Source: Candidatus Magasanikbacteria bacterium RIFOXYC2_FULL_42_28
GTDB lineage: Bacteria > Patescibacteriota > Patescibacteriia > Magasanikbacterales > GWA2-37-8
Assembly: GCA_001784435.1 (NCBI GenBank)
Contig: MFQZ01000004.1
Coordinates: 1 to 53,703, forward strand
DNA length: 53,703 bases
Direction: 5' to 3'
Shown: in pieces, positions 7,850-33,778 of the stretch
Layout: each line of letters starts with the position of its first letter
Position numbering within the stretch: position 1 is the first letter of the stretch
Notes under the pieces: model-generated
Told to the model about the DNA's origin: nothing
Databases searched by the model: none
What the model saw: the letters and a program-made list of their open reading frames with translations, nothing else
Made by a program: the position numbers and the translations under genes

Positions 7850-7942
7850 GTGTTTAGTAAGAAATAATTTTCATTTTTCCATTTTTCAATATTTATGCTA
7901 TAATAATAAATAGCTAAAAAAACTTAAATATAGTGATTTTTC

Positions 7943-11741: not shown

Positions 11742-11744
11742 ATA

Positions 11745-12113: not shown

Positions 12114-12238
12114 GGGTATATTGTAACACAAAAAATTTGTGATTTCAACATCTCACCAAGTGCTCCTGCGCGAGAAGCATTTGGTGAGATGGCGCAGGGG
12201 TGAAGGTGCGCGCCACACCTCACGCGGAACCGGACGGC

Positions 12239-12505: not shown

Positions 12506-12589
12506 CCCCACCTCCTCTCTTGGTTGAACTACCCAGGTATTTTCTCACATCCATCACCAGCGTCAATATTTTTGTCAATTGTCTGTGGC

Positions 12590-12598
12590 TGTGGATAA
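12590..12598 (-). promoter_or_regulatory. DnaA-box consensus TTATCCACA (second copy 15355..15363)
   Basis: Exact 9/9 consensus match on the minus strand at both sites. Confidence 0.55.
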
Positions 12599-14419
12599 CT
12601 AATTATTAATATTTTTTAATTTAATCTTCCCCATCACATGCAATTCGTTCATCGCGCGAGTTAAGGCGACATACAGCAAATCACGTTCAACCTTTTTAAT
12701 TTCCACGGCCAGTTCCGGTGGCAGATTGTCGGCGTTAGAATAGTTTTCGCTAATACCAACCAGGCAGACGATTTCAAATTCCACGCCTTGCGCTTCTTGT
12801 CGGCTTAAACAATGGACGCGTTTGTTATCGGCAAATTCTTTTTTAAATTCAGTAAGATATTCTTTGTCTTCGGCCAAAATGCCAATAGTGCCGGTACTCG
12901 CGTCGGTAATTATTTTTTTAATTTGCGTGATTTCTTCCATGGCTGATTCACAAATATATTCCTGCACCGGTTGGCCATCTTTAATCCCTATCGGAATCTG
13001 TACCGAATATCTCAGTGCGCGAATGTAAAGCAAAATTTGTTTGGTATTGCGGTAAACTTTTTGTAAAGCGACTAGACGGTTGGTTTCTACGGTTTCGCCA
13101 ATATCTCCCCAGTTTTTAATTGTGCCTAACTGTGTCTGCTGGGCCAGATCGCCAACATACACGACCGACTCCAGCCGGTGGTTTAGGCAAGTTTTAAGCA
13201 AAGACAATTGCTCGGGCAAGTAATTTTGAAATTCATCAATTATCATTAAATTGTATTGCGCCGGAAAGGCCTTGGTTTTTTTGCGATAAGTATTTCGTAT
13301 TGATTGTTCGTAATATTCTTTGTTGATAGTAAATTCTCCAAAAGTTTTAAGATGATAGTGTAATAAAATAGTTAAATCAAAGCGGTCTAAAGCACGTTCG
13401 TGTTTTTGTTTGGCAAATAATGCTAATTGGATTTTGTCAAAATAAAATTGATAAATTTCAGTCAGTAATACAAAAATATTTTTGTTATATTTCAAATCGG
13501 TTGGCAATTTTTTTAAAGTCGTAAGTTTGGCAAATTCATATAAGTTTTTTTCTTTTTCATTTTGTCCTGGGCGGATAATTATTTGATAATTTTCCAAACG
13601 CAATACCCTGAGCGCCCATTCGGCAAAAGTGATAATTTCAACGCCACGAATGCCAAGTTCAGGCAGTAGGTGAGAGAAGTAATCTCGCGTGCCAACATCT
13701 TGCACTAAAACTAAAATTGAATCAGCGGAAAATAGTTCGGTGGTTTCGGGAGATTGCATTAAGTAGGCGACACGGTGAAGCGCCATCGTGGTTTTGCCAG
13801 AGCCAGCTGGGCCGGAAATTACCAGTGGCCCAGGATAAGGCGCGCGCACGATTTGGTCTTGCGCTTTTTCCATTTGTTCAATTACTTCGGGCAATACGAA
13901 GCCGGGTTTTTGACGGGTAAAATGTTCTTGATAAATCAATTCGCGTGGGACAGCTGTGCTTTCGGTGGATAAAAATTTTAATTTGCCGTCCACAATCATG
14001 TATTGGTCTTTGCTAAGTAGTTGACCAGTTTGGATACTGCCGTCCGGGCGAGTGTAAGAAGCGGTCCCGGGATTTTCAAAACGTAAGGCAGCGGCTGGCG
14101 TTACCCACGAATATATTTTTTCATCATTAAAAGAAAATTTACCAAAATACATTGTTTTGGTTTCGTCATTAATTTTGAATTCACAGCGCGTGAAATATGG
14201 AGAAGGGTAGAGTTGTTTTAGATTTTCGATTTGGACATCGTTGTGCGCGGCGATGGTATATTGCGCGATCGCATCGCCCGGGTGCAGGGCTTGGGCGGTT
14301 TTTTTCATTACCGTTCCTTTGGTTTCACGCCGGGCAATATCACCAGTTATTTTTTCACGGACATGATTAACGTGTGTTCGGGCTTTATCTAGAAATTGTT
14401 TTTTAAGTTCTTCTTTCAT
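12599..14419 (-). CDS. HelD-like SF1 (UvrD-type) ATPase/helicase (probable start MKEELKK)
   Basis: GPAGSGKTT Walker A, MALHRVAYL, IIDEFQ, VGDLAQ, YVALTRA, N-terminal SPYF..YFG region typical of the HelD family. Confidence 0.85.
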   Translation of the reverse strand: MKEELKKQFLDKARTHVNHVREKITGDIARRETKGTVMKKTAQALHPGDAIAQYTIAAHNDVQIENLKQLYPSPYFTRCEFKINDETKTMYFGKFSFNDEKIYSWVTPAAALRFENPGTASYTRPDGSIQTGQLLSKDQYMIVDGKLKFLSTESTAVPRELIYQEHFTRQKPGFVLPEVIEQMEKAQDQIVRAPYPGPLVISGPAGSGKTTMALHRVAYLMQSPETTELFSADSILVLVQDVGTRDYFSHLLPELGIRGVEIITFAEWALRVLRLENYQIIIRPGQNEKEKNLYEFAKLTTLKKLPTDLKYNKNIFVLLTEIYQFYFDKIQLALFAKQKHERALDRFDLTILLHYHLKTFGEFTINKEYYEQSIRNTYRKKTKAFPAQYNLMIIDEFQNYLPEQLSLLKTCLNHRLESVVYVGDLAQQTQLGTIKNWGDIGETVETNRLVALQKVYRNTKQILLYIRALRYSVQIPIGIKDGQPVQEYICESAMEEITQIKKIITDASTGTIGILAEDKEYLTEFKKEFADNKRVHCLSRQEAQGVEFEIVCLVGISENYSNADNLPPELAVEIKKVERDLLYVALTRAMNELHVMGKIKLKNINN

Positions 14420-16667: not shown

Positions 16668-17071
16668 GTGGAGGCGGCGAGAGTTGAACTCGCGTCCGAT
16701 GAAAACGATTATTACCTTCTACAAGTTTAGCGTTTTTATTTTTTTCGACGAACGGGTACGAAAAGCGCAAAAGTCACGTTCGCTTAGCCGAATTAATTTC
16801 GCTTATTTTGTCCGGCGCCAAAATAAACTACTTTCCGTGGTTTACACCGGATCTGTGCTACGGAATCTTACACAGACGATGCCGACCGGCCCTTAGGCCA
16901 AAGTCGGAGCTAAGTTACAGCTACCGCAGCCGCCAAAGGCGACAGCAATCGCGTTCTTAACTTTTGATAACAAGTTGGCACTTATTATGTTGTTTCGGCA
17001 GATTAAAGAGGCCCGAAACCGTCTCTACTTGCGAGTGACAACCGATTTTACCGTCGATGCCCAACGCCCCC
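16668..17071 (-). ncRNA. ssrA: tmRNA; tag reading frame 16979..16893 (ANLLSKVKNAIAVAFGGCGSCNLAPTLA)
   Basis: 5' GGGGGCG pairs with 3' CGCCTCCA. T-arm gcgag-TTCAACT-ctcgc. Resume context ATAAGT-GCC-AAC. Adjacent to smpB. Confidence 0.93.
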
Positions 17072-20938: not shown

Positions 20939-23900
20939 ATGCCAGATAGACATGTCCAACAAAGCACGCCCGAAGCGTGGCACAATTTCGATGCTAGTAA
21001 TTTTGCGGTTGGCGATTATGTCACTTATTTTGATCCGGCCGACGAGCGGTGGCATTTTGCTCAATTAGATGCGAATCCACGCCATAATACTCGCAATAAA
21101 ACAGTGGAATTGTATTTGAACGATGAAAACGGCGCCCCCCTCCCTGATTTAGAGTCGCCCTTGCCACCAAAGAGGATTCATCTACAAGAAGGCGGAGTAA
21201 TAATTAGGGGGCAAAGGTATGAGGTAGATCGAAATTTGCCTTATAACGATATTGTAGTTGACGAAAATGGTAACGCCTATGCCACTTTATGGCCGGTTGA
21301 TGCCACCGGCAATACCATCCCTGATTTGGATGAATTACCTAACATGAATTTAAGCATGTTGGAAAAAGTTCAGCGCACCAGCCGTGATGAGGCCGAAGCG
21401 GATACTCGCGTCGCCACTATTCATGAATTGCAGAATCGTACGAACGATGTCGCCACTGTTAAACGCAAAGAATTTGTCAAACGGTTAAATGATCTGGAAA
21501 AAACCATTGAAGATTTAATTAACAAATTGGGATCTTGGAACGAGTGGAACGACCGCGATGATCGGGAGATTAATGCTGTTAAACAAGAGGCCGCCCAGAT
21601 CTATAAGAAAGTCGACGCGGATTTGGAGAAACTGCGCCGTGATTTGGATGCTGTTTTATCTAAACAAGCCGAGGCCGGTAATGAGGCAATTACCGAAGGA
21701 CGCCGAAAAGTCGCAGTTGATTTGGACGGGGCTGTTTCAAAGAGCGCGAGTAAGATTGCCAAGGCGTGGGAAAAATACGATAAAGAGGTGGCCGACTCCA
21801 AGAAAATTTGGGATCAATACGATAAAGACAAAAAAGCGTTTGATGATGCCGCCGCGGCTCCGGCTCCGGCCGCGGGGGGCAAACCACCCCGACCGGCCGC
21901 TCCTAAGAAAGAACCGACGATTCCTACTGTTCCCCGAGAGTCCGTTATCACACCGCCCACGGAACCACGCGATAAAAATTTTATTGCTGCCGGCAGTTAT
22001 AACAGTTTAGCAACTCATAGGCCTCCGCTTAGCGCCGAACACGCCGAGATAATTCGTTTGGTGACTGAGCGGTTTGCGGCTTGGGAGAACGGGGTAGACG
22101 GTACACCTTCTCCCGAAGATCGGACGGAAAAAACCGGTGAGATATTTTTGGCGGTATTAGAAGAGATGAAAAACGCGCCCAAAGTGGAAGCCGAGCCGTT
22201 TGATTTTGCCAAAGAAAAAGAAGAATTGGAAACAGAGGCCAAAGCCCTTTGGGACCGCGCTAGCGACGGCGGCTACGAGCCGGTAATGGATTTAATCAGA
22301 AATAGTCGAGAGGACATTCATAATCTGAAAAAGAAAGATAAAAATGCCCAAAGAAACATGGCGGAAATTTGGAAAAAATTGGGTAATATTGAAATTACTT
22401 TATTTAAAAAAGAGAGAAAAGATAAAACACCGAATGAAAAAGTCAAAGAACGGGATATCGACATCCCCGATACTTTGGTTGGAGAAATTATCCAATCGCG
22501 TCCGCAGGAATTGTTCAATTTAATGTTGGATATGTATCGGAATGAGTATTCGGAAACAGGCTATACTTCCAAAGGTTTGCCAATGGAGGATATTGTTGCT
22601 GATCGTTTGAAAAATTTATTCGCCGCTCCGCCTGCCGGTCCAGCCGGTCAAAGAATTTTGGCAGATTTAGCTCGACACGGTATTCGCGATTGGAATCATT
22701 TTACCTTGCTGTGGGAGCAGAAATACGCTTTGCGCGCTTCCAAAGTATTGCACGAAACTGTTCGTGCCGATATCAACAATGATACTGCTCGCCATATTAG
22801 CGGTTGGGACAAAGCGCGAGCGATGTTACCGCAACTTGCCAAAAGAATTGTCACCACAGCCGTATTAGTTGGCGGTTGTGCCTTGGGCGCTTCGGTGCTG
22901 GTCCCAGCTGGCGCGACTGCTTTAGTTGCCGGGGCAGCAGTTGTTGGTGGTGGTACTGTCGGTGGCGCTGTTCGCGGTGTTTTACAAAAATTTTGGTTTG
23001 GCAGAAAAGTCCAAGAAGATCGAGACAAAAAAACCATGGAGGACTTGACCAACCGCACGCGCGACCAGCGCATTCAAATGTATTTGGCGCAACGGTTCAA
23101 TTTTAATCCCGCTGATTTTGATATTAATAGGAGTTTTAACGGCGGAACAGTTAATGCTGTCACCGGTTTAAACAATGCTGCCGATACGGTTGCGGAACTT
23201 TCCGCTTTGATTGCCGAGGCCACGCGGGTGGCCGGAAAAGAGGCGATTGAGATTGATGATGCCGACCGTCCGCCGGCCGGAATTGTCCTTACCGGCGATG
23301 CTTTGCGAACCTATGTTCGCGCTTTGGCCGCTTGGCGCGCGCGTGAACACGGCCGAGAAATTTTACCGGAAGAAAAGAAAAAATTAGCCGAGACAATAAT
23401 TGGTATAGTAGAGGGTAAAAATGAATTGGCGGAAGGCGACAAAGCCGCAGCCACCGGTTTGACCGGTGAGGGATTGGAAATGTATATCAATGTTTTGAAA
23501 AAAATTCGTCGTGAAGGTGATAGTCCCAATGAAAAACAGAAAAAAGCGTGCGCTTTGGCAATCGCGCGTTTAACGCAAGGCGCCGAAGTAACACAGGTTT
23601 TGGCTGCTGCCGGATCTGACCCAATCGTTATTCGGTTGTTTGATGGCATTGCCCAAGGATTTAGCGGTCAATCAGCGAAAAAATATGGTTGGAAAGGGGT
23701 CGCCGGAACAGCTGCTTTGGGTGGTGGTATGGCCGGAGCGTTTTTACTAAACAGTGGTGCCGCCCGGGCGGTGATGGGCGCGATTGGTGGAGGCGCGAGC
23801 GGTTATCATATGGGTGAGGGTATTCGCAAAGGGCGTGAATATCGAGATGGGCGAACGCGGTTTGATGTTGTGTTTACACAAACACGAACTTTGCAGGATA

Positions 23901-26269
23901 GATTCAATGTGAATCCGGCTACTCTTACCGCGGACGAATTAAATGATTTGGCGGATGACGTTCGCCTGCTGAATCGTTGGCTAAAAAATAATGCCGATAC
24001 GATTGAAGATTCGCGCGCGGTGGATTATATCAATCAGAATCCGGTTACTCGCAAACAATTGGAAAATTTGGTTTACGAGGCCTACAATCGCGGTGTGTTT
24101 GCCCGTTTGGCCTTGGAAAAACTCAACAATTTTACCAATTCACAAGTTTTGGGTAGTTTGGAGAGTGATAATTTGGGTGTAAAAGCCGATGGCAATATTA
24201 GTCAACCGGACAAAGATCGCGAACGACGCCGAATTTTACTTTGGCGTATTGGTTCAACGGCAGTGGGCGCTTTAGCTGGCGCCGGTTTGGCTTGGGGGGC
24301 CGGTGAATTGTTTAGTCGCGCTAAAAATGCCGGCGCGGATGCTTTGCGTGAAAAATTTGGCATTGGCGCGGTGGCGGCCGGAGCGACTGTCCCCGGCAGT
24401 GGCGCTGGCGGGGCGGAACATGTGCCGGGTGGCCGTAGTGGCCACGGTGCTGAAGTAATTAGTCCCGACCCGGCCACAAGTGGTGGCACCGAACATTTAC
24501 CAACCGGCGAAAGACCGCCGGCGATCGCGCATTATGAATTACACGACACCCGGCTCCCGGGAGCTCCCAAATACGAAGGCATGTGGCGCGCGATTGAAAG
24601 TTTCAAGGGCGATTCTCATTTTAAGGGAATGTCCAATCATGATTATACCGATTGGCTTAAAACCGAAATGGAACGGATGGGTTATAAATTTTTAGACGGT
24701 ACCCACAAAATCGCGCACCCGTTTGATGAAAATCCCGGCGATAGGGTAGAATTATTTGTTGATGGTGAAGGTAATCCACACGTGCGCTTTTTGAATGCCG
24801 ATGGTTCGGATAAAGTGGCAATGGACCATTATAATATTGAGACGCGAGTGGGTGGAAAACCAGTGGTGGGAGCGGAAATAGAAACAAAGTTTGCCGGCTT
24901 TAATAAATTGGCGCATGAATTTGCGGACCAATGGAACAAGCCGGGTGCCGATCATGATAATTTAATAAAGAATTTTCCAATTGCTGATTTGGACTCTATT
25001 AAATCCATCAATGTTTACGGAGAGCGCGGAAGTGTAGTGGTTGAATTTACTGACAATACACAGGGGCTTTATCATCCGGTAAAAGCACTGACTGGAAATG
25101 GGTGGATTTTGCAGTCTGGCCGTGAAAATTTACAAGATGTTTTTGAGCAGGGAGTATATGATTACAATTCAAGCAAGTTGCACCCAATAGAAAATGGCGG
25201 TGTGAGATACTATGAATTGCCGGGGAAAGTTATGACTAACGGGAATAGGGCTGGTCAAGATTTTTCGATGTTATATGATATTGGTGGCAATCCAGTTGGT
25301 TATAAATTAGATGGTCTAGTAACAATTGGTCCATATCATTCAGCGATAATGGAAGGCAATAGATGGCCGGTCGGCACACCAGCGCATATTGATGTTCGCG
25401 GTGAAGGATTCAAATGGTTAACAGGCGACGCTATTAATTCAACCGACCAAGCCAGAATTTCCGCCGCGGCCGGCGGGTATGATGTCGTGCCACGATATAC
25501 CGGTGGTGGGGGAGGGACGGGGTTAAGGCCGGAGGCGGGGGCGAGCGGTGGCGGTGTGCCAATAGAAACACATCCACCGGCCAATGATGCCGTGTTGCCG
25601 CCAGAGGCGAGGGGTGCTGTCGCTGGCGCGGCCGTGAGCGAAGCCGATGTTTTTCAAGATTCTTTGCGCCCTGGTAAGGGGGCAACTGCCCAGTCGGCTT
25701 CGGCCGAACAGGTATTGTCGCCATCTGCTGTTGATGTCAGTGTTTCGCGCGGTTGGTATGGTGGTCGTGTTCTTGAGTTGTTTACTAAAGAGTTTAATTC
25801 TGTATCGTCCGAAGCGAACAATCATATCGGCAGTGCGGTAGATTCGTATAATAGACAACTATTGGCCGATGTGAAGGTGCATCCGGAAAATCACCAGCAA
25901 TTTATCTTGGCTAATAAGACCGACAATGAACAAGCGATGCTACAGGCCTATGTCAGTGATCCTTATTTTAGAGCAAATTTTCCAGATGAGTTAAAATTAG
26001 CGTTTGATTATGGCGGTACGGGTATTGAGGAAGCTAAAGTCGTAGGTGGTGATACCGCCAAGGTAATTGGTAATGGGTGTAGCGCATTTACCGCTTCTGT
26101 TGGCGACAGCGGTAAGAAATACTTTCATTATGACCCAGATTATACCTATGCTCGTGCTGTCAGCGGGGATTTAGTCGCCACTAAAGATGGTAACACTTTT
26201 TTGGTAGAATTCAATGGGCTTAATGACGACGGTACCCCCAAAGTTGATTACCAACCATTTAGCAGTTAA
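20939..26269 (+). CDS. Giant 1776-aa protein with coiled-coil, Pro/Ala linker and three Gly/Ala-rich hydrophobic segments
   Basis: Uninterrupted ORF. Hydrophobic GxxxG-rich stretches (IVTTAVLVGG..., GVAGTAALGGG..., IGSTAVGALAGAG...). Confidence 0.9.
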   Translation: MPDRHVQQSTPEAWHNFDASNFAVGDYVTYFDPADERWHFAQLDANPRHNTRNKTVELYLNDENGAPLPDLESPLPPKRIHLQEGGVIIRGQRYEVDRNLPYNDIVVDENGNAYATLWPVDATGNTIPDLDELPNMNLSMLEKVQRTSRDEAEADTRVATIHELQNRTNDVATVKRKEFVKRLNDLEKTIEDLINKLGSWNEWNDRDDREINAVKQEAAQIYKKVDADLEKLRRDLDAVLSKQAEAGNEAITEGRRKVAVDLDGAVSKSASKIAKAWEKYDKEVADSKKIWDQYDKDKKAFDDAAAAPAPAAGGKPPRPAAPKKEPTIPTVPRESVITPPTEPRDKNFIAAGSYNSLATHRPPLSAEHAEIIRLVTERFAAWENGVDGTPSPEDRTEKTGEIFLAVLEEMKNAPKVEAEPFDFAKEKEELETEAKALWDRASDGGYEPVMDLIRNSREDIHNLKKKDKNAQRNMAEIWKKLGNIEITLFKKERKDKTPNEKVKERDIDIPDTLVGEIIQSRPQELFNLMLDMYRNEYSETGYTSKGLPMEDIVADRLKNLFAAPPAGPAGQRILADLARHGIRDWNHFTLLWEQKYALRASKVLHETVRADINNDTARHISGWDKARAMLPQLAKRIVTTAVLVGGCALGASVLVPAGATALVAGAAVVGGGTVGGAVRGVLQKFWFGRKVQEDRDKKTMEDLTNRTRDQRIQMYLAQRFNFNPADFDINRSFNGGTVNAVTGLNNAADTVAELSALIAEATRVAGKEAIEIDDADRPPAGIVLTGDALRTYVRALAAWRAREHGREILPEEKKKLAETIIGIVEGKNELAEGDKAAATGLTGEGLEMYINVLKKIRREGDSPNEKQKKACALAIARLTQGAEVTQVLAAAGSDPIVIRLFDGIAQGFSGQSAKKYGWKGVAGTAALGGGMAGAFLLNSGAARAVMGAIGGGASGYHMGEGIRKGREYRDGRTRFDVVFTQTRTLQDRFNVNPATLTADELNDLADDVRLLNRWLKNNADTIEDSRAVDYINQNPVTRKQLENLVYEAYNRGVFARLALEKLNNFTNSQVLGSLESDNLGVKADGNISQPDKDRERRRILLWRIGSTAVGALAGAGLAWGAGELFSRAKNAGADALREKFGIGAVAAGATVPGSGAGGAEHVPGGRSGHGAEVISPDPATSGGTEHLPTGERPPAIAHYELHDTRLPGAPKYEGMWRAIESFKGDSHFKGMSNHDYTDWLKTEMERMGYKFLDGTHKIAHPFDENPGDRVELFVDGEGNPHVRFLNADGSDKVAMDHYNIETRVGGKPVVGAEIETKFAGFNKLAHEFADQWNKPGADHDNLIKNFPIADLDSIKSINVYGERGSVVVEFTDNTQGLYHPVKALTGNGWILQSGRENLQDVFEQGVYDYNSSKLHPIENGGVRYYELPGKVMTNGNRAGQDFSMLYDIGGNPVGYKLDGLVTIGPYHSAIMEGNRWPVGTPAHIDVRGEGFKWLTGDAINSTDQARISAAAGGYDVVPRYTGGGGGTGLRPEAGASGGGVPIETHPPANDAVLPPEARGAVAGAAVSEADVFQDSLRPGKGATAQSASAEQVLSPSAVDVSVSRGWYGGRVLELFTKEFNSVSSEANNHIGSAVDSYNRQLLADVKVHPENHQQFILANKTDNEQAMLQAYVSDPYFRANFPDELKLAFDYGGTGIEEAKVVGGDTAKVIGNGCSAFTASVGDSGKKYFHYDPDYTYARAVSGDLVATKDGNTFLVEFNGLNDDGTPKVDYQPFSS

Positions 26270-26296
26270 ATTTAGTAGTTAAAATTCTATTAAGAT

Positions 26297-26323
26297 AAAA
26301 TAGGCCTCAAAAAGGCCTATTTT
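26297..26323 (+). terminator. Intrinsic terminator
   Basis: aaaataggcct-caaaa-aggcctatttt. Confidence 0.85.
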
Positions 26324-26392
26324 ATTATGCCAAATTTTGGCTAAAATTAGCATAAATTCAATCAAATTGGGGATAAAATTAGGGTAGGGGGC

Positions 26393-26421
26393 TTGACAAG
26401 AAGCCAAAAGTGTGCTATAAT
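26393..26421 (+). promoter_or_regulatory. Perfect sigma70 promoter TTGACA-N17-TATAAT
   Basis: Exact consensus, with extended TG before the -10. Confidence 0.88.
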
Positions 26422-26426
26422 GACCA

Positions 26427-26622
26427 GTCGTGAAAATATAAAAAAGTTTACTTTTATATATTTGAGCGACGCAGGCATTTCAAGCTTTGCTTATAATGCT
26501 TGGTCAGGATATGAAAGGCGGATGCGTTTTGAGAGAGACGCGAATTCGCCCCAATACTGAAAACGACATACAATCTAAATAAATTGTAATAACCTCTCTC
26601 ATATTATATAGGGAGGTTTTTT
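26427..26622 (+). ncRNA. Candidate ~200-nt structured ncRNA of unknown family
   Basis: Lies between a perfect promoter and the terminator aacctctct..agggaggtttttt. Four hairpins by eye. No listed plus-strand ORF. Confidence 0.55.
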
Positions 26623-26972
26623 AATAAAGTATCGCTCTTTACAATATAAGTCACTCAAAAGCAATAGATTGCCGTCTGTTTTACTGGAATACTCAAGTAA
26701 AGCAAACGGCGATCTAATCCGAAGTTGATGATTTCTGATTCTTGGTTCGTCGGGCTCTTCGCAAGAAGAAACCGACATTAAAGGCCTTCTAGGTAGGCCA
26801 GTATAAAGAAACGCGGACAAACATCAGTTTGTTACGCACTTTATCAAACCTAAACCGTCTTACTCTGAATTTTAGAGCGACGGAAGGAACTGATGGAACC
26901 AAGATGAGGATTTCTGATACTGAAGAGGTGGTTGGAACCGTATGTTCGTAGGTGCGTTACATAGGAGGTCAC

Positions 26973-27488
26973 ATGACCCGCACCACTCAGGCCCTGCTCG
27001 GCGTGTTCGGTCTCGTCCTGGTCGGCGCCATCGCGTTCCTGTCCTTCACCCACACCTCCCGCACGGAGGTGGTGGAGGAGGTCCAGATCCTCCGCCAGGA
27101 GGTCCAGGACGCGAAGTACGCAAAGGCGGACGCCATGTCCGACGAGTTCAAGCTCGTCCGCCGGGAGTTCGCCGCGGCCGACGCCGCGCTCTCCGAGCGC
27201 CTGTCCGGTGTGGAGGGCGGCCTCAAGTCCGCGAACATCCGCATCCGGAAGGCCCGCGAGGAGGCCGGCAACGCGTTGGCCAGCGTCATCAACCTCGAGG
27301 GAGCCCTCGCCCGCAAGGCCGACGCCGAGGCGGTCGAGGACGCGCTCGCCGCCAAGGCCGACGTGGCCGCCCTCGCGACGAAGGCCGACAGCGAGGCCGT
27401 CGAGGCCAACTTCGCGCTCAAGGCCGACGTCGACGCGCTCGCCCGCCGCCTGGCCGGCATCGAGCCGCGCGTCAGCGCCCTCGAGTGA
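26973..27488 (+). CDS. Cassette 1: GC-rich membrane-anchored coiled-coil protein, 171 aa
   Basis: AGGAGG at 26963..26968. N-terminal TM, KAD repeats. Sample line 27121-27180 is 42/60 GC. Confidence 0.85.
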   Translation: MTRTTQALLGVFGLVLVGAIAFLSFTHTSRTEVVEEVQILRQEVQDAKYAKADAMSDEFKLVRREFAAADAALSERLSGVEGGLKSANIRIRKAREEAGNALASVINLEGALARKADAEAVEDALAAKADVAALATKADSEAVEANFALKADVDALARRLAGIEPRVSALE

Positions 27489-27492
27489 TCGA

Positions 27493-27728
27493 AGCCCCAC
27501 ACCATGTGTGGGCAAGCCCCCGCGTCGGGGCAGTGCGCGCAATGTGCACGAAACGACGCCGCGGCAATCCGCCACACGGATCCTTTACCTGGATCACAGC
27601 GGACCGCGCAGTAGGGGGAGGAGAGAATGAGACTATCGAGAGTTTCGGCAAAACTCCTCTCCCTTCCCCTACATCTGTTCATTAAATTGTTAGTGCGCAG
27701 ATGAAGTGGAAGTATTTGTTCTTTAAAA
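27493..27728 (+). ncRNA. Cassette 1 structured 3' element ending in boxA-like tgttctttaaaa
   Basis: Several short hairpins, long stem 27611..27672, last hairpin 27673..27702, purine linker, motif at 27717..27728. Confidence 0.55.
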
Positions 27729-27765
27729 TTTAAGGAGGCGTGTATTCGCCTCTATTTATTTTTAA

Positions 27766-27852
27766 CTGTCATCCCGAGCGTAGCCGAGGGATCCCTTAGA
27801 GTTGGTGTTGTTATCAACTTTAATAAATCCTTTGTTGCGCCCGGAATGACAG
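27766..27852. repeat. TGTCAT-family palindromic element between cassettes 1 and 2
   Basis: ctgtcatcccgagcgtagccgagggatc ... ccggaatgacag. Same family as 15812, 39272, 48722. Confidence 0.8.
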
Positions 27853-27939
27853 TGCAGTTTTTGCTGTTTTCCTTGTTCGTGCTCGCAACCCACCCGATAA
27901 TCGGGGCCCGACAGCGTCGGGTTTTTTGGAGGAAGTCTC

Positions 27940-28578
27940 ATGACTCGTGCACAGTTCTGGTCGTTTTTGGTGGCGGTGGTGGTCGTGGGCATCGTGGCAG
28001 TGCTGGGGTTCGGTCTCGGCTTCACCAAGGCCGACGAGGACGAGGTGGTCGCCGCCCTGGCGACCAAGGCGGAGGCCACCCGCATGGCGGCCGAGTTCGT
28101 CGCCGTGCGGGGAGAGTTCGCCGCGGGTGACGCCACTCTCGCTGCTCGCCTCACCGGCGTGGAGGGGCGGGTCTCCACCGTGGAGTCCCGCCTCACCGGC
28201 GTGGAGGGTGGCCTGAAGGCGGCCACTCGGCGGCTCTCCGAGCTGCCGCAGAAGGCCGATCTCGACGCCCTCGCCGCCCGTCTCGGTTCGGCCGAGGGTA
28301 CGCTCGCCTCGGCCCCCTGGTCGACTGGCCTGGCCACCTTGGCCGGTCGGGTCGCGACCCTCGAGACGCCCGCGCCCCCGATCGTCGCCCCCGTGTCGCC
28401 CACCTGCACTGGCTGGTCCCTCGGCGTCCGCGGCGCGCCCATCTCCCCGGTGGGTTGCTACGCGACCTGCGTTGCGGCGAAAGCTGTGGCGCAGGGTGGT
28501 AGCCGGTTCAGCGGCTCGGTCTACGGGCGGACATCCGCCCAGTGGATTGAGTCGAGCGAATCCTGCCCGGCCGAGTAG
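27940..28578 (+). CDS. Cassette 2: GC-rich paralog of cassette 1 with a Cys-containing C-terminal domain, 212 aa
   Basis: GGAGG SD. N-terminal TM. EFxxVRxEFAAxDAxLxxRLxGVEGGLK shared with cassette 1. Internal 42-bp duplication. Confidence 0.85.
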
Positions 28579-28587
28579 TTCTTTCAC

Positions 28588-28798
28588 ACCCCACCGCACG
28601 ATCTCCCGATCGTAGCGGTTGGCGGCACACAGCGCGTCTTTCCTGTAAGCGCTGGATCGGTCAGACGGTTTGTCTCCCCGTGAGACGAGTCGGCTTCCGT
28701 TGGAAAGGGTCCCGAGTTTGTTGGCAACAACACTCTCGGGCACTCTGGCATGTTGATTTGTTAATCAAGTCAACAGTTAGAGTAGGTGTTCTTTACAA
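28588..28798 (+). ncRNA. Cassette 2 structured 3' element (173 bp shared with cassette 3)
   Basis: 28588..28760 matches 29602..29774 with 2 mismatches, then gtcaacagttaga and tgttctttacaa. Confidence 0.7.
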
Positions 28799-28933
28799 AA
28801 AATTAAATTTTCCGGCGTGAACTTTTCATTGTTTAGAAAAATAATGAAGAGCTCACGCCGGATCCGATCGAGGCATATTGTGGACGATCCACAATGTTGC
28901 TTTAGTTGGGATTATCTGGTAGAGGAGGTTCCT

Positions 28934-29596
28934 ATGGGGCGCAAACCCCCGACCTCGGCGCGCGTCATCGCGACGTTCGCCATCCTCTGCGCCACGGCCT
29001 CCCCGGCCGCGGCGCAATCTGAAACCGGTGACGCGGCGCCCGCCGCTGTCACCCCTGATCCGGCCGAGTTGCCGGTGCCCCCAACCTCACCCGACCCGGG
29101 TGGCTGGAAGTTGGTGCTCGCCCCCGAGTTCAGCGTCGGGGTGGCGCACTCGGAGGCCGGCTTCGACGCCGACTCCGAGGATGCCTACCTCGGCACCGTC
29201 TCGGCCACCTTGCTCCTGCGCCACTCGGCCCTGTCCGGTGGTGAGCCCTCATCTTTCCTGTATGGGCTTCGCGGCTTGTACGGGTTGGGTGGTGGCTCGT
29301 CGGGTGCACGCCAGTTGTGGGGCGTCGCTGGCCTTCTGGGTTGGCGCGCGTCTCGCGACCGCGTCGTCGGGGGCATTGGTCTGTCCTACATCCAGTATGA
29401 CAAGGCAGGCGGGGATTGGGTCCGCCGCGGTGGCGGCGTTCCGCTCTGGATCGAGATCAAATTGGGGGATAGCACCTCCAATTGGTTCCTCGGTCTGGAA
29501 GGGACGCCCGCCATCCTCTGGCGGGACCTGGACGATGCCCCTGCGTTCGCCTTCGGGCTGAACGCGGGGGTGCTCTACCACATCCCCCTCTACTAG
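28934..29596 (+). CDS. Cassette 3: GC-rich secreted protein resembling a small outer-membrane beta-barrel, 220 aa
   Basis: AGGAGG at 28923..28928. Signal peptide (ASPAAA-Q), Pro-rich linker, Gly/aromatic-rich amphipathic strands, C-terminal GLNAGVLYHIPLY. Confidence 0.75.
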   Translation: MGRKPPTSARVIATFAILCATASPAAAQSETGDAAPAAVTPDPAELPVPPTSPDPGGWKLVLAPEFSVGVAHSEAGFDADSEDAYLGTVSATLLLRHSALSGGEPSSFLYGLRGLYGLGGGSSGARQLWGVAGLLGWRASRDRVVGGIGLSYIQYDKAGGDWVRRGGGVPLWIEIKLGDSTSNWFLGLEGTPAILWRDLDDAPAFAFGLNAGVLYHIPLY

Positions 29597-29601
29597 TCTT
29601 T

Positions 29602-29817
29602 ACCCCACCGCACGATCTCCCGATCGTAGCGGTTGGCGGCACACAGCGCGCCTTTCCTGTAAGCGCTGGATCGGTCAGACGGTTTGTCTCCCCGTGAGAC
29701 GAGTCGGCTTCCGATGGAAAGGGTCCCGAGTTTGTTGGCAACAACACTCTCGGGCACTCTGGCATGTTGATTTGACATACGAAGCATCGAGTCAACAGTT
29801 AGATTGGTTCTTTAAAA
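29602..29817 (+). ncRNA. Cassette 3 structured 3' element (near-identical to cassette 2 element)
   Basis: 173-bp direct repeat, different loop in the final hairpin, ggttctttaaaa at 29806..29817. Confidence 0.7.
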
Positions 29818-29979
29818 TTTAGAAAAATAAATTAAAATATAAATGATACTGCGCGCGACTGGCGCGGAAAGAGAAATTATTATTTGATTTTTCTTTCTGC
29901 GTCAGTTTGTAGTTCGGTGCTCCGAGGATGGTCCTCGTAGGTGCCGGCGCAGCAAATCGCATAGCAAGGAGAAAAAACT

Positions 29980-31530
29980 ATGCGTACCACCAACATCGCG
30001 GTGGTTCTCTGTCTCGGACTCTGGACCGCTTCGTGCGGCACCAAGGCCGAGGCCCCCGGGCTCGACGTGCCCGCGGACGACGATAACACGGCGGATGACG
30101 ACACCGCCGACAACGACGACCTCGTCGTTTGCCTCGAGTGCAACGACGATGACCCGTGCACCACGGACTGGTGCCGGGTGTCACCCCCCCCTGGGGTCGA
30201 CTCGTGTGTCCACATGAACGGGGACGCCGGCGTCACCTGCGACGACGGCAACGGTTGCACCGAGACCGACGTGTGCGACGGGGTGGGCACCTGCGTTGGC
30301 ACGCCCCTGGCGTGCGACGACGGCGATGCCTGCACCGACGACGCGTGCACCGACGGCGTGTGCAACAACACGTCCGTCACCTGCGACGACGGCGATGCGT
30401 GTACCGCGGAGTTCTGCGGGACCATCGCCGGCGGTACCGGTGGGTGCTTCTCGGTTCCCGTGGCTGGCGAAGGCTGCGAGGAGGAGTCCAACTGTACCGT
30501 CGCCAGCGATGGCGTCGGGAATTTCTCCCTGACCTGCCCGGACGGCTCCGTGGCAGAGTGGGGTGACGGCGCGGATGGCGCGCCGGGAATGGACGGAGCC
30601 GATGGGGTCGATGGGACCCCGGGTACCGACGGCGTCGATGGCAGCGACGGCACGGACGGAACCGATGGCGCGCCGGGAGCTGACGGGCTCGACGGTGCGG
30701 ACGGGGCGGATGGCGCCCCGGGTGATTCGTGCAGCGTGACTGTGCTTCCGATGGGGTGCATGGTCATTGTGTGCGGGGATGACGATCCTTCCCCGCCCCT
30801 GTGCCCGGACGTGTCCGAGGCCGGATGCACCACCACGCAGGACGGCGACTGTGCTGTCATCAACTGTGTGGGTGGATCTACGTCGCGGGTGTGCCCCACC
30901 ACGACGGCTCCTGCCTGTGTCACCGACGGCGACTGCGCCGACGGCAATGCCTGCAACGGCCACGAATCGTGTGTGGCCGGGGAGTGTGTGAATGGGGTCG
31001 TGGTGTCGTGTCTGGCCGCGGACGCGTGCCATCTCGTCGGTGAGTGTGATCCGGCGAATGGCCTGTGCTCCTCGCCTTCCGCCCCGACGGGGACGGTGTG
31101 CGACGACGGCAACGCCGGCACCACCGGCGACCAGTGCGACGGCGCTGGCCTGTGTGTGGGGGTGGCCACGCCCCCCAGCCCCGATGCCGATGGCGACGGG
31201 TACAGCATCGCGGCCGGCGATTGCGACGATGACCCCACCGTGGGTCCGTCGCCGGCCCGATGGTGCCGGGGGAGCGACACGAAGAAGTTCCTCGTGATCG
31301 ACTTCCTCGGAAGTGTGGCCCCGGCCTGCCCAGCCGGAAGTGTCGAAGTCGCGCTGACCGACGGGTCCGCGCTCAACAACCCCGGTATCCACGATACCAC
31401 CGGGGATGGCTTCGACAACAACTGCAACGGCATCATCGACGAGGGCGGCGGGGACCAGTGCACCTGGTCGCACATGTCGTCCGGTCCCGCGCTGGACTAT
31501 CTCGTTCGATGCCCGTGGATGAACCCGTAG
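29980..31530 (+). CDS. Cassette 4: GC-rich Cys-rich lipoprotein with CDDGxACT repeats, collagen-like Gly-X-Y tract and metal-binding-type motif, 516 aa
   Basis: AAGGAG SD, lipobox WTASC, repeated CDDGNxCT, GADGAPGMDG... tract, DADGDGY..GDCDD and DGFDNNCNGIIDEG. Confidence 0.88.
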   Translation: MRTTNIAVVLCLGLWTASCGTKAEAPGLDVPADDDNTADDDTADNDDLVVCLECNDDDPCTTDWCRVSPPPGVDSCVHMNGDAGVTCDDGNGCTETDVCDGVGTCVGTPLACDDGDACTDDACTDGVCNNTSVTCDDGDACTAEFCGTIAGGTGGCFSVPVAGEGCEEESNCTVASDGVGNFSLTCPDGSVAEWGDGADGAPGMDGADGVDGTPGTDGVDGSDGTDGTDGAPGADGLDGADGADGAPGDSCSVTVLPMGCMVIVCGDDDPSPPLCPDVSEAGCTTTQDGDCAVINCVGGSTSRVCPTTTAPACVTDGDCADGNACNGHESCVAGECVNGVVVSCLAADACHLVGECDPANGLCSSPSAPTGTVCDDGNAGTTGDQCDGAGLCVGVATPPSPDADGDGYSIAAGDCDDDPTVGPSPARWCRGSDTKKFLVIDFLGSVAPACPAGSVEVALTDGSALNNPGIHDTTGDGFDNNCNGIIDEGGGDQCTWSHMSSGPALDYLVRCPWMNP

Positions 31531-31790
31531 CGGGTATCCAACGCAGTGAGCTGGTGAACATAACACCGGCAATATAGCAAAAAAATGTCGGGAGATACCG
31601 TAATTCTCCTAGTCCGCCCAGTAAAGGAGGGGTGGAAATGAAACGGAACACAATGCGTCCGTGGCGCGCAAGCGTCTGGATGTTTGACAGCAGGCGTCGG
31701 TGGGGAGGTCTCATACTTCCCTGCCGACGCCCGCCCGATTGAGAACATAAAGATTTGTGTTTTCAAACAGGGTGAAGCGATTTAAAGTTT
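31531..31790 (+). ncRNA. Cassette 4 structured 3' element
   Basis: Short hairpins, long stem 31693..31731, last hairpin 31739..31766, purine linker, degenerate gcgatttaaa. Confidence 0.5.
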
Positions 31791-31962
31791 GAAGATATAG
31801 TTTTACATATTAACGTCTCGGTTCGAAAATGCAAAAACTTCGTTTTTTCATTTTGCTCACCTTCGAGACGCTAATAAAAATACCACCAAGTTCGTCTCTC
31901 TCATCCTATGTTTTTTTAGACAAAGGAAGAAGAACTCGGTGGTATTTTTGTTTTATTTATAC

Positions 31963-32316
31963 CTATGCGACCTGCAATTGTTTTACTTGTCTTTCTAAAA
32001 AGTCCACTCGTTTGCGTAACTCCAGAATATCTTTGGCCGCGGCATCTTCATCGCCAATAATGCGTTGTTCCAATTGATCCAACTGGCGATTAATTAATTT
32101 TAACTCAGAGTGAATATACGCAAGCGCGCTGGCCATTTCAGATTTAAATTCCGACAGTTCGCCTTTGACTGACTTTATTTCCGCGCTTAGTTCTCCTTTC
32201 AATTCATCAAACCGCCTGTCCACGCTTTTAGCGAATAATTCCATTGCCTCTAAAATTTCGTTATTACTCACCTCTTTTTTGGCTGTCATATTGTTTGACA
32301 TTAATTTTTTAAGCAA
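31963..32316 (-). CDS. Small coiled-coil hypothetical protein (start uncertain, 32316/32301/32289)
   Basis: Heptad-repeat character. AT-rich, genome-like codon usage. Confidence 0.75.
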   Translation of the reverse strand: MLKKLMSNNMTAKKEVSNNEILEAMELFAKSVDRRFDELKGELSAEIKSVKGELSEFKSEMASALAYIHSELKLINRQLDQLEQRIIGDEDAAAKDILELRKRVDFLERQVKQLQVA

Positions 32317-32392
32317 ATTTATTATATCATTGTTTTAAAATAATTGTCAAACGCAATGGATTTTTTAATAGTAATATGGTAAAATATATCTT

Positions 32393-33778
32393 ATGATTGC
32401 ACAAACAATTAGTACCAGATCAACCAGATTAAAATTTTTGGTCGTGATTTTAGCGACTGTTTTGGCTTTTGGCGCCACTATTTTTTACGGCACTTTTGGC
32501 GCGGTTTTGGCCGGAGTGGTTTTTTTGATTTGGTTTTTTTCCAGCCGTTTGACGATTGGTTGGTATATTTTGGTGGCGTTGTCACCCTTTATCGGCTGGC
32601 AAATTTATTTGGAACATTATTTTCGCGGGTCGCCGTTTTTTGCCGGTTGGAACGCGCCACCGGTGGAGTTTTGGGCGATTTTAATGTTGCTGGCTTTTGC
32701 TTTAGATTATGTTCGTCAATTGTTTGACGGCGCACAACCGCGCTTGATTTTTCCTCGGGCTAAATATTTTTTGTTGTTTGGCGCGAGCGCTTTTCTGTCG
32801 CTCATTAACATCCCGGCGTCCGAACGCTTGGCTGGTGTTAAATTTATTGCGCACTTTTTTTTATTTACTTATTTTGCCTATGTTTTTTTGGGAGCCAATA
32901 TTGTCAAATCAAAAATTGTTTGGGAAAACAGTTTAAAAATTTTAGTGGGCGTTGGTATTTTCGGCGCGGCGACGGGGGCGTGGTCGTTGTTTATCGGCGC
33001 TTGGAATGTGGGCGGATTAGAGCGCGCAGTGCCATTGCCCATTGGCGGAATTTGGCCATTGGGCGACCAGCATATTTTACTCGCGGAATTTTTGCTCATT
33101 GCTTTAATATCTGCTTGGTATTTTTACTTAACTCGCAAAACATTTTTGACCGGTTTGTTGACGTTATTTATTGGCGTTGTCGGCCTGCTGACCTGGTCGC
33201 GTTCTTTTTGGTTGGCGATTATTATTACCGGCGCGGTGGTGGGATTTCAATATCGCGCTAAAATTAATTGGGCGGGGATAGCGCAAAAATTTTTGCCGCT
33301 TTTGATTATTTTATTATTCGTGGTCGGTTACTGGTTTTATTTTATGTATTCGGCTGATATGGTAATTGGCAGTTCTAATAGCGCGCGCGCGTCTGGCGCC
33401 GAATTCGCCTGGGAGTTGGCGCGGACTTATCCGTTAATCGGGGCGGGAGTGGGTAGTTTTGTGCCACGCTTAAGCGAAATATATTATTATCGGATTGATT
33501 TTGGTGACGCCGTGGACGCGCTGGGCTGGCCACAGAAAATTTTGGCTGAACAGGGATTTTTAGGTTTTGGCATATTCGTCGGTCTTATCGCCAGCGTTTT
33601 ATATTCTTTGCGGAGCGCGTTTTTGGCAACTGGTAGTCGTGCCAATCGTATTATTTATTTTTCGGCCTTCTGTCTATTTTTGGCACCGTTAATTTTTGAA
33701 ATGTTTACCACTAATTATTACAGCGCGCGCTTGTGGGTACCATTGGCTTTGGCGCTCGCGGTTATCGATGATCTATGA
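32393..33778 (+). CDS. O-antigen ligase / Wzy-like membrane protein
   Basis: Multi-TM. LTWSRSFW, YPLIGAGVGSF, ILAEQGFLG resemble the Wzy_C layout. Confidence 0.8.
   Translation: MIAQTISTRSTRLKFLVVILATVLAFGATIFYGTFGAVLAGVVFLIWFFSSRLTIGWYILVALSPFIGWQIYLEHYFRGSPFFAGWNAPPVEFWAILMLLAFALDYVRQLFDGAQPRLIFPRAKYFLLFGASAFLSLINIPASERLAGVKFIAHFFLFTYFAYVFLGANIVKSKIVWENSLKILVGVGIFGAATGAWSLFIGAWNVGGLERAVPLPIGGIWPLGDQHILLAEFLLIALISAWYFYLTRKTFLTGLLTLFIGVVGLLTWSRSFWLAIIITGAVVGFQYRAKINWAGIAQKFLPLLIILLFVVGYWFYFMYSADMVIGSSNSARASGAEFAWELARTYPLIGAGVGSFVPRLSEIYYYRIDFGDAVDALGWPQKILAEQGFLGFGIFVGLIASVLYSLRSAFLATGSRANRIIYFSAFCLFLAPLIFEMFTTNYYSARLWVPLALALAVIDDL

Follow-up and report, generated by a model that had tools for sequence, protein, structure and literature searches.

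A recurrent array of GC-rich genes led by boxA-like sites and Shine-Dalgarno motifs in a Magasanikbacteria-related genome

In phage lambda, the pL-nutL region carries a boxA and a boxB, followed by an RNase III hairpin before N, and boxA elements are said to occur in the leaders of CRISPR arrays as well. The vls sequences of Borrelia encode surface proteins with a GC content far above that of their AT-rich genome, a property kept between species despite sequence divergence; silent vls cassettes recombine into one expression site, and biased conversion has been proposed for them. In the Bacteroidetes, the exception to initiation without a Shine-Dalgarno (SD) motif is the autoregulation of rpsU. 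The Bacteroidetes ribosome sequesters its anti-SD (PMC7797042), and a survey could detect an anti-SD motif in just 48% of Parcubacteria 16S genes (PMC9297842). In Escherichia coli rrnG RNA, boxA is the binding site of NusB-S10 and the spacer that of NusA (PMC2724277; PMC3177189). The functional boxA consensus derived by experiment is GYTCTTTAANA (PMC5725501), and boxA is known outside rRNA from suhB and other mRNAs (Baniulyte et al. 2017, PMC5725501). The locus described here is an array of four plus-strand open reading frames (ORFs) at 26973-31530 of a 53.7-kb stretch of DNA (the window), in which each unit opens with a boxA-like site.

The window is a chromosomal stretch of a Patescibacteria (candidate phyla radiation, CPR) genome of about 42% GC and holds ligA, PPDK, infC, smpB, a transfer-messenger RNA (tmRNA) and mur genes. 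The nearest relatives of its O-antigen ligase (Wzy) are annotated as Candidatus Magasanikbacteria, at 43% identity. The array lies between a giant surface-protein gene and an O-antigen-ligase/glycosyltransferase cluster. Its architecture is real, conserved and, as far as found, undescribed: literature searches returned no comparable architecture, and boxA, a known element, is here in a new use. The evidence tips modestly towards a native, clade-wide and vertically inherited surface-protein array of Magasanikbacteria-related CPR bacteria, expressed via processive antitermination of the rrn type, with Nus factors acting at boxA. Its products would be fast-evolving secreted proteins, anchored to lipid or membrane and presumably exposed at the surface. 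Related loci were used for comparison; 135 were fetched in all, including 80 further metagenomic loci (L055-L134) retrieved with the GHL15 protein as anchor, and 2.17 Mb of these sequences were surveyed for the box.

Between 26.9 and 31.6 kb, GC content in 100-nt windows alternates four times between 63-79% (ORFs) and 28-44% (gaps); abrupt switches at each unit had been noted in an earlier reading of this DNA from its letters alone (the sequence-only reading). The four ORFs have a GC content of 68-72%, against 0.42 for the genome. High-GC DNA contains long ORFs in all six frames, and composition by codon position was checked for this reason, with GC at third positions (GC3) plus GC1 > GC2 as the test of the coding strand. 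GC3 is 0.94-0.97 in ORF1 (depending on the start codon), 0.86 in ORF2 and 0.82 in both ORF3 and ORF4, compared with 0.40-0.48 in seven host genes, and GC1 exceeds GC2 in the named frames; the four plus-strand ORFs are therefore genuine coding frames. Codon choice differs in the same direction: TTC stands at 96% in the array and 15% in host genes, AAG at 86% versus 14%, GAG at 89% versus 24% and ATC at 89% versus 21%, while A at third positions falls to 3% from 27%. An SD motif of the GGAGG type precedes the ATG by 5-8 nt in 4/4 array genes and in 0/33 host genes of the window, where none of the other combinations of SD and start codon coincides with a gene start. The two comparisons that the sequence-only reading had proposed, of GC3 gene by gene and of SD frequency, both set the array apart from the host genes sampled. 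Across loci, a permissive test finds an SD in 68% of GC-rich genes versus 15% of host genes. A gene for tRNA-Glu(CUC) is present in the window, so that at least GAG can be read in cis.

All four products begin with a segment suited to the envelope: a transmembrane (TM) segment in ORF1 and ORF2, a signal peptide in ORF3 and a lipoprotein-type signal in ORF4. ORF1 and ORF2 are paralogous, with 34-37% identity. ORF1 matched no Pfam or NCBIfam family, and its start is most likely the SD-led ATG at 26973 rather than 26952. Homologues of ORF3 and ORF4 were sought in large databases. For ORF3, only a self-match was returned, both among 5.8e9 clusters and, by phmmer, among 1.84e9 representative proteins; an AlphaFold2 model built from the single sequence, with no alignment, reached a predicted local distance difference test score (pLDDT) of 39.5, was uninformative and was not used. 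ORF4 contains Cys-rich CxDGNxC repeats, a collagen-like GxDGxDG run (Pfam Collagen) and a C-terminal domain with the conserved motifs DGDG/CDDD/DNxCxGxIDE.

Several of the GC-rich genes are assigned to a wrong strand or frame in public gene predictions, both in related loci (L002, L007, L008) and in the window (26850-27575, 27820-28743 and 29880-31475, all minus strand). The miscalled minus-strand products include proteins of 307 aa and 430 aa, and GC3 with GC1 > GC2, the SD motifs and the signal peptides show that the genes are on the plus strand. It is likely that this class of genes is misannotated widely. Gene callers put many of its members on the wrong strand, and today's annotations therefore miss most of the family.

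The 11-mer GYTCTTTAMAA has exactly four matches in the window, all on the plus strand and one per unit (0.29 expected), at 146-339 nt 5' of each ATG. A 15-nt motif, GTTCTTTACAATTTA, and close variants of it open all four units, and the box and its 3' flank together nearly reproduce the boxA-spacer of E. coli rrnG, ugcucuuuaacaauuua (PMC2724277). The sites at 27718 and 29807 match GYTCTTTAANA exactly, and those at 26634 and 28788 deviate from it at position 9 alone (C for A). The survey found 57 sites with at most one mismatch to the 11-mer, 49 of them on the gene-sense strand and 26 in the 450 nt that precede GC-rich genes, although such positions account for 1.2% of the sequence. When two mismatches are allowed, a box precedes 36 of 46 GC-rich genes. 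G1, T6 and A10 are invariant among 43 clade sites and C4 is kept in 95%; the TTTA flank is also enriched, with A at position 15 in 70% of these sites, though it was not used for selection. In L005, L007, L059, L072, L076 and L078, boxes lie on the same strand as predicted TTGACA-N17-TATAMT promoters, 53-241 nt after them, and box 1 of the window is 241 nt downstream of the predicted promoter at 26393. The sequence-only reading had already recognized a boxA-like motif but had assigned it to the end of each cassette; the four sites, two of them exact matches to the consensus, are borne out, and they head the leader of the next unit. The alternative that the box is itself a sigma70 promoter, with TTTACA as the -35 element, was rejected, as inspection found no consistent -10 element at 16-18 nt. 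The window lacks nusB, nusE, nusG and rho.

The box is always paired with a long inverted repeat, which lies 1-35 nt downstream. The 110 nt that follow the box form a GC-clamped hairpin of 15-25 bp with an AT-rich apex, and the mean z is -5.3 over 23 leaders, the sequences of which are unrelated. Upstream of the point at which the sequence-only reading had let the array begin, there is a fifth control module, composed of the predicted promoter at 26393 and an attenuator-like hairpin and terminator. Equivalent promoters are predicted upstream of arrays or units in L005, L007, L059, L072, L076 and others. The terminator of the leader consists of a 5' arm, CCUCUCUC (26593-26600), and AGGGAGG (26610-26616) followed by U6; the GAGAGAG of the preceding hairpin could pair with the CUCUCUC arm of the terminator and so act as an antiterminator. 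This attenuator motif is conserved in seven loci, always upstream of GC-rich arrays and following a promoter in L005, L059, L063, L064, L078 and L108, and the base stems of the copies differ and covary. The leader has no Rfam match. MAFFT/RNAalifold recovered 0 pairs from the GAGAGAG attenuators, the variable spacer not being aligned, and the support is from per-sequence folds only. The region 26393-26622 is a candidate for a new attenuator or riboregulator.

The leader of ORF2 also contains the TGTCAT palindrome, which the sequence-only reading had described as a feature of this genome in the AT-rich gaps. The palindrome is present, as part of an insertion resembling a miniature inverted-repeat transposable element (MITE) at 27766-27852. 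A full element with the same terminal inverted repeats, flanking a GIY-YIG endonuclease gene, occurs at 9610-9975 of L005, and a related 20-mer is found at 48717-48736 of the window. A small mobile element thus has the TGTCAT...GAGCG motif as its terminal inverted repeats, and the window copy is a MITE-like derivative of it that has no gene. At the other end of the array, the inverted repeat at 31873-31952 is probably a bidirectional terminator marking the end of the unit. This repeat is common to the end of the array and a convergent 117-aa coiled-coil gene (31963-32316, minus strand), which has host composition and a perfect sigma70 promoter at 32350-32321.

The regions 3' of the four ORFs (the tails) fold far better than shuffled sequences (z = -6.1 to -6.5), as chains of 3-6 independent hairpins. 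Across loci, the 160 nt after the stop codon have a z of -4.95, with 87% below -2, versus -2.97 for the antisense strand and -1.47 downstream of host genes. The better folding of the sense strand argues for structure at the RNA level, and the stems lean on G.U pairs, which makes them strand-specific RNA hairpins and not DNA hairpins. One orthologous tail family has compensatory changes in 9/45 pairs; no motif is common to all tails. The sequence-only reading had treated the four tails as copies of a single structured 3' element that should covary and recur. Their structure is confirmed, as are structured tails across loci, but they are not one family: alignment and BLAST relate tails 2 and 3 and no others, and no covariance model of all four is justified. 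Tails 2 and 3, boxes included, are a duplication that begins right after two unrelated stop codons; the copies share 99% identity over 173 nt and 89% over 235 nt. As known RNAs the tails were searched against Rfam both at gathering thresholds and at E <= 5, and nothing was found; the best sub-threshold matches to Rfam 15 in 26200-32400 have E values of at least 0.017, far below gathering, and the only gathering-level matches in the whole window are the tmRNA and two tRNAs. An exact 23-mer from a tail has 0 matches in GTDB representative genomes and JGI metagenome contigs, a result of little weight, as the source genome is evidently in neither. Complementarity between leaders and tails is absent, and there is consequently no rRNA-style leader-trailer helix enclosing the ORFs.

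The same build, with boxA, hairpin, SD, GC-rich gene for a secreted protein and structured tail, is found at the same syntenic site in relatives, and the layout of SD-led, GC-rich envelope genes given by the sequence-only reading thereby holds both for the window and for many related genomes. The order of giant protein, variable region or array, Wzy, GT4 and GHL15 is kept in L005, L007, L009 and part of the 80 GHL15-anchored loci. Flanking proteins are 29-47% identical across the syntenic relatives (GHL15 47% and Wzy 43% in L005), and their Wzy proteins are only 43%, 33% and 29% identical to that of the window. The variable region of L007 has two genes of 70-78% GC (GC3 0.89 and 0.93) with a gap of 28% GC between them, the gene adjoining Wzy in L009 has 65-75% GC, and the variable-region genes of L005 have 57-59% GC; in these three loci, each of the GC-rich genes has the same box upstream of it, together with a long hairpin and an SD. 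About 30 of the 80 anchored loci contain plus-strand genes that have a GC3 of 0.7-0.95 and an SD and encode a signal peptide, a lipobox or a TM segment, located upstream of Wzy or just downstream of GHL15. In a metagene profile, GC climbs at the start codon and decays over approximately 150 nt past the stop. ORF4 belongs to a family of 19 members with GC3 values of 0.60-0.93, which in some 17 loci fills the last slot ahead of Wzy. Its C-terminal 123 aa are 55% identical to a syntenic gene of L005 (A3), a level comparable with that of the flanking genes. All assemblies of its population have the array in identical form, its last slot is conserved across those 17 or so loci, and slots 1-3 are unrelated in distant relatives.

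Directly downstream of GHL15, a second GC-rich, boxA-led family occurs, encoding proteins with a TM segment and KAD-repeat coiled coil similar in architecture to ORF1 and ORF2. Members of this family share a conserved tail of four hairpins and a terminator, with compensatory base changes. In L025, a 384-kb contig of a Patescibacteria metagenome-assembled genome (MAG), blocks of 55-66% GC lie in a background of 45-50% (6000-10500 and 11700-13500); they encode a protein with the C-terminal motif of the ORF4 type and have no clear box. GC-elevated genes for secreted proteins may thus reach beyond the clade studied here.

Table 1. Positions of the array genes, boxes, leaders, tails and associated elements (window coordinates unless a locus is named).
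Feature	Position	Strand	Remarks
Sigma70-type promoter, TTGACA-17-TATAAT, TG-extended	26393-26421	+	12/12 consensus match; prediction
Attenuator-like leader	26509-26622	+	hairpin with conserved apex UUUUGAGAGAG (GAGAGAG 26531-26537), then intrinsic terminator
boxA-like site 1 (GCTCTTTACAATATA)	26634-26648	+	compare E. coli rrnG boxA-spacer ugcucuuuaacaauuua (PMC2724277)
Leader hairpin 1, GC-clamped stem, AT-rich apex	26667-26713	+	fold of 110 nt after box, z = -4.1
ORF1	26973-27488	+	171 aa; N-terminal TM segment and KAD-repeat coiled coil; SD AGGAGG 26963-26968; GC 0.72, GC3 0.97
Tail 1, 5-6 hairpins	27489-27717	+	minimum free energy -100.6 kcal/mol, z = -6.1; no similarity to other tails
boxA-like site 2 (GTTCTTTAAAATTTA)	27718-27732	+	exact match to GYTCTTTAANA
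Terminator-like hairpin GGAGGCG..CGCCTC, then T-rich run	27734-27763	+	directly after boxA 2
MITE-like insertion, ends TGTCATCCCGAGCG...GGAATGACAG	27766-27852		gene-less; in ORF2 leader
Second terminator-like hairpin (GCCCGACAGCGTCGGGT + T6)	27906-27927	+	immediately 5' of ORF2 SD
ORF2	27940-28578	+	212 aa; TM segment, coiled coil and Cys-containing C-terminus; SD GGAGG 27928-27932; GC3 0.86
Tail 2	28579-28787	+	repeat copy 28588-28760; G.U-containing hairpin just 5' of boxA 3; z = -6.3
boxA-like site 3 (GTTCTTTACAAAAAA)	28788-28802	+	
Leader hairpin 3, 24-bp arms, 4-nt loop	28811-28862	+	inverted repeat I2, 88% complementary; leader z = -9.8
ORF3	28934-29596	+	220 aa; signal peptide, beta-rich, C-terminal HIPLY; SD GAGGAGG 28922-28928; GC3 0.82; orphan
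Tail 3	29597-29806	+	second repeat copy 29602-29774
boxA-like site 4 (GTTCTTTAAAATTTA)	29807-29821	+	exact match to GYTCTTTAANA
Leader hairpin 4, 20 pairs, AT-rich core	29859-29905	+	z = -7.2
ORF4	29980-31530	+	516 aa; lipoprotein-type signal; SD AAGGAG 29966-29971; GC3 0.82
Tail 4, 5-6 hairpins	31531-31770	+	minimum free energy -108.1 kcal/mol, z = -6.5; sequence unrelated to tails 1-3
Inverted repeat I1, AT-rich, 25-nt arms, 88% complementary	31873-31952		between array and convergent 117-aa gene
Second boxA-led family	L055 12130-13028; L056 3251-4290; L057 12115-13105; L058 8763-9880; L060 4530-5349; L062 2340-3365		

Four sharp switches in GC, and short-read contigs that end inside the 173-nt repeat (L001 begins at 29745; L003 and L004 are short), might suggest an assembly chimera of a CPR genome and a high-GC genome. 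However, a 51.7-kb ENA/MEGAHIT contig that was assembled independently contains the array in full with 100% identity, and the junctions of the array recur at 100% identity in JGI data (one contig) and in two Logan assemblies made from separate runs; the array is therefore not a chimera. Breaks inside the repeat are what is expected for a true repeat, and like architecture occurs in tens of unrelated metagenomes. The chance of misassembly, which the sequence-only reading had allowed for, is accordingly negligible. Horizontal gene transfer (HGT) is a more serious proposal: the array would be an island from high-GC donors, such as Myxococcota-like hosts or neighbours, that has not yet ameliorated. 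The extreme compositional contrast, in GC as in GC3, is a hallmark of transfer; the repeats and C-terminal motif of ORF4 resemble Myxococcota/Deltaproteobacteria proteins, the lipobox is of diderm style, ORF3 has a possible C-terminus like that of an outer-membrane protein, and the proteins in slots 1-3 differ between genomes. Other hallmarks are missing. Far from being absent at the same site in relatives, GC-rich units are found there in L005, L007, L009 and many of L055-L134, and the closest homologues are not in a donor lineage: ORF4 has a syntenic CPR gene as its nearest relative (55%), and ORF3 is without a homologue even in collections that include the metagenomes of the source samples. 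A search of 185,579 species genomes for a donor of the ORF4 C-terminal domain gave only matches of 31-44% at the level of its metal-binding-like motif, mostly in Myxococcota or proteobacterial MAGs, plus the Patescibacteria locus L025; the Myxococcota matches otherwise cover only generic Cys-rich repeats, and the Myxococcota-type donor implied by the sequence-only reading is not upheld. No donor genome was found for the array in searches that covered ORF3 and ORF4, and phage and plasmid records show no similarity to the region. The same slot is GC-rich while its flanks have diverged to 29-47%, a distance over which neutral amelioration should have erased the elevated GC3; the rise in GC coincides with the start codon instead of falling at arbitrary breakpoints, and AT-rich, clade-specific leaders are interleaved with every unit. 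With no donor, and GC3 of 0.8-0.9 held at one site over such divergence, plain HGT is not supported, and transfer of this kind is distinctly improbable. Even less can be said for a site-specific cassette system resembling an integron or a cluster of attC sites lacking an integron integrase (CALIN), with the tail or the box as recombination site, an idea close to the gene capture by a 3' mobilization signal that was suggested by the sequence-only reading. It would accommodate the tandem single-gene units in one orientation, the variable slot content, the 235-nt duplication that comprises tails 2 and 3 plus boxes and starts directly behind two unrelated stop codons, and GTTAGAG/GTTAGAT beside the boxes, which resembles an attC R' core. 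Yet a scan of both strands of 26200-32400 gave 0 attC-like pairs in which R'' (RYYYAAC) and R' (GTTRRRY) have complementary arms, and three GTTRRRY sites occur there, none with a partner; GTTAGAG/GTTAGAT was rejected as an R' core, its partner arm reading GGC rather than AAC and pairing only via G.U. A Pfam scan of all large ORFs of the window detected no tyrosine recombinase or other recombinase within 20 kb of the array, and the sequence-only reading was correct that no integrase, reverse transcriptase or transposase lies in or beside it. Tails 1 and 4 are unlike tails 2 and 3, the G.U-dependent stems are those of strand-specific RNA hairpins, the last slot holds a conserved positional orthologue in a syntenic location, and the array is identical in every sample assembled. 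Without attC sites, a recombinase or a shared 3' element, and with positional orthology and G.U stems, gene capture is not supported, and such a system is very unlikely.

The remaining alternatives accept a native array. The box could serve as a DNA operator, read by a dedicated transcription factor or an alternative sigma factor, or a protein other than Nus factors could recognize it in RNA; the inverted repeats would be DNA cruciforms or operators that control each unit. Its conservation in DNA, its constant pairing with a long, perfect inverted repeat 1-35 nt downstream and its departure at position 9 from the published boxA consensus would fit an operator. Against this stand the placement of 49/57 sites on the sense strand and of boxes downstream of consensus promoters, the near-identity, spacer included, to an experimentally defined RNA site, the better folding of the tails in sense than in antisense, which argues for RNA-level structure, and the fact that the box, unlike most operators, is not palindromic. 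This alternative is unlikely. A bolder proposal, also raised by the sequence-only reading, is that the genes are transcribed in the CPR cell as trans-acting mRNA (or DNA) effectors and translated by a high-GC, SD-using host, with boxA protecting the transcripts from Rho and the tails protecting them in transit. In the window, SD motifs are confined to the GC-rich genes, codon usage is opposite to that of host genes (TTC and AAG above), and fewer than half of Parcubacteria 16S genes (48%; PMC9297842) have a detectable anti-SD; boxA is otherwise a hallmark of untranslated RNAs, the 3' ends are structured, and high GC has been conserved over deep divergence with no donor. However, neither export machinery nor a packaging signal was identified, the tails have no common motif and the mechanism has no known precedent. 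The tRNA-Glu(CUC) of the window can read GAG in cis, L005 orthologues have a moderate GC3 (0.60) behind the same leaders, Sec and lipoprotein signals work in monoderm CPR cells too, and a strong SD is no more than a structured GC-rich mRNA requires. A simpler explanation, acting in cis, is available, and no positive sign of export was found. The probability of translation in another organism is accordingly slight. Inter-bacterial mRNA effectors or their milder form, a conditional second translation regime within CPR cells (an exposed anti-SD or altered tRNA supply serving a surface-protein regulon), are together given just as small a chance.

Several observations also weigh against a native array served by Nus-dependent antitermination. 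Most copies of the box have C at position 9, where the gamma-proteobacterial consensus has A, and there is no rRNA operon in the window or in any of the 135 fetched loci. Just 3/36 leaders have a terminator-like hairpin in the interval from box to ATG, so that gating of a terminator by boxA was rejected as a general rule and antitermination of defined terminators is not obviously needed. The 15-25 bp hairpins after the box are unlike lambda boxB. The orthologues in L005 have a GC3 of just 0.60-0.67 with the same leaders, which shows that the architecture can persist at a GC3 of about 0.6. In distant relatives, slots 1-3 hold unrelated proteins, and this variation could be turnover by an insertion mechanism. 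Finally, antitermination offers no reason for the GC-richness itself, with a GC3 of 0.8-0.97 against 0.40-0.48 in the sampled host genes. Candidate causes are selection for a nuclease-resistant, Rho-resistant and long-lived mRNA; conditional expression gated by codons or by the anti-SD; biased conversion associated with recombination in fast-evolving surface genes, by analogy with vls; and translation in a high-GC host.

In the native, antiterminated array favoured here, the strong sigma70 promoter at 26393 would start a transcript that next passes the attenuator-like leader. At the head of every unit, boxA and its spacer would load NusB-S10, NusA and NusG onto RNA polymerase, and the polymerase so loaded would resist Rho and many terminator-like hairpins. 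A long, highly structured and slowly translated GC-rich transcript could thereby be completed. The hairpins after boxA and the multi-hairpin tails may serve as processing and stability elements (sites of the RNase III type and blocks to 3' exonucleases), giving stable monocistronic mRNAs. The strong SD would draw ribosomes to mRNAs that are unable to use AU-rich, SD-independent initiation. The products would then be exported to the envelope, beside the giant protein and the glycan machinery, where they plausibly form a surface for contact with a host.

If this is true, antitermination by Nus factors and boxA is used systematically for protein-coding genes, before every tandem gene, across a clade of ultra-small symbionts. 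The array also exposes a dichotomy within one genome, between ordinary sampled genes that are AT-rich, lack an SD and prefer codons ending in A or U, and a secreted or surface set with a GC3 of 0.8-0.97 and strong SD motifs. The dichotomy has been kept over a divergence deep enough to saturate synonymous sites. It makes several questions testable: how translation is initiated in Parcubacteria without SD motifs and whether two regimes of initiation run there; what maintains an extreme local GC content with no donor, be it selection on mRNA, biased conversion or expression elsewhere; and which proteins CPR cells show to their hosts.

Elsewhere in the window, the giant protein upstream of the array (20939-26269, 1776 aa) has several TM or glycine-rich segments, a slightly raised GC content (0.48) and no Pfam family; comparable giant genes (1327-1681 aa) lie upstream of the arrays in L005 and L007. 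A tandem pair of genes at 107-1105 and 1156-2154 encodes apparently identical 332-aa leucine-rich-repeat proteins with equal Pfam scores. The tag peptide of the tmRNA (16668-17071, minus strand) is unusually long and contains Cys: ANLLSKVKNAIAVAFGGCGSCNLAPTLA. A large serine recombinase (Resolvase, Recombinase and Zn-ribbon domains) at 51725-53363 adjoins tRNA-Glu(CUC), 20 kb from the array and with no obvious link to it; this site may be the edge of an integrated element.

Of the described systems, rrn antitermination (boxB-boxA-boxC with NusB-NusE(S10), NusA, NusG and SuhB) is similar in the box and spacer, GTTCTTTACAATTTA in the array and uGCUCUUUAACAAUUUA in E. coli rrnG, and in the position of the box in a transcribed leader after a strong, here predicted, promoter, with repetition within the unit like that of boxA in the 16S-23S spacer. 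In both, stable hairpins flank the box, and the RNA that follows is rich in GC and strongly structured by the standard of the genome. The array differs in that its products are protein genes with SD motifs and signal peptides instead of rRNA, in having four boxes in 3.2 kb and in the absence of a leader-trailer helix, and a boxA role is assigned to its boxes by likeness of sequence. Like the boxA sites of non-rRNA genes, which are proposed to modulate Rho-dependent termination when transcription and translation are poorly coupled, the array has a consensus boxA in a 5' leader. However, the known cases have a single box ahead of a gene or array, whereas that of the array described here stands before every tandem gene, is tied to a compositional class and is conserved in a clade. 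The order of boxA, hairpin or hairpins, SD and gene recalls lambda nutL, in which boxB is a 5-bp stem with a GNRA-like loop and not a variable hairpin of 15-25 bp; an N-like gene and similarity to phages are likewise missing from this chromosomal region.

With integron arrays and CALINs, the array shares co-oriented single-gene units, structured 3' elements and varied cargo. Unlike them, it has no attC cores or IntI, a separate leader and SD serve each unit, synteny of the cargo is conserved and the 3' structures are of the RNA type, with G.U pairs. The vls system of Borrelia likewise combines surface-protein genes of a GC content far above that of the genome with retention of this trait while sequences diverge, although the units of the array are complete genes with their own leaders and have no homology to one another besides that of ORF1 and ORF2. 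In SD-poor lineages such as the Bacteroidetes, ordinary genes also lack an SD and a small set has a strong one, which suggests a separate regime of initiation; in the array, the SD exception is a set of GC-rich genes for secreted proteins.

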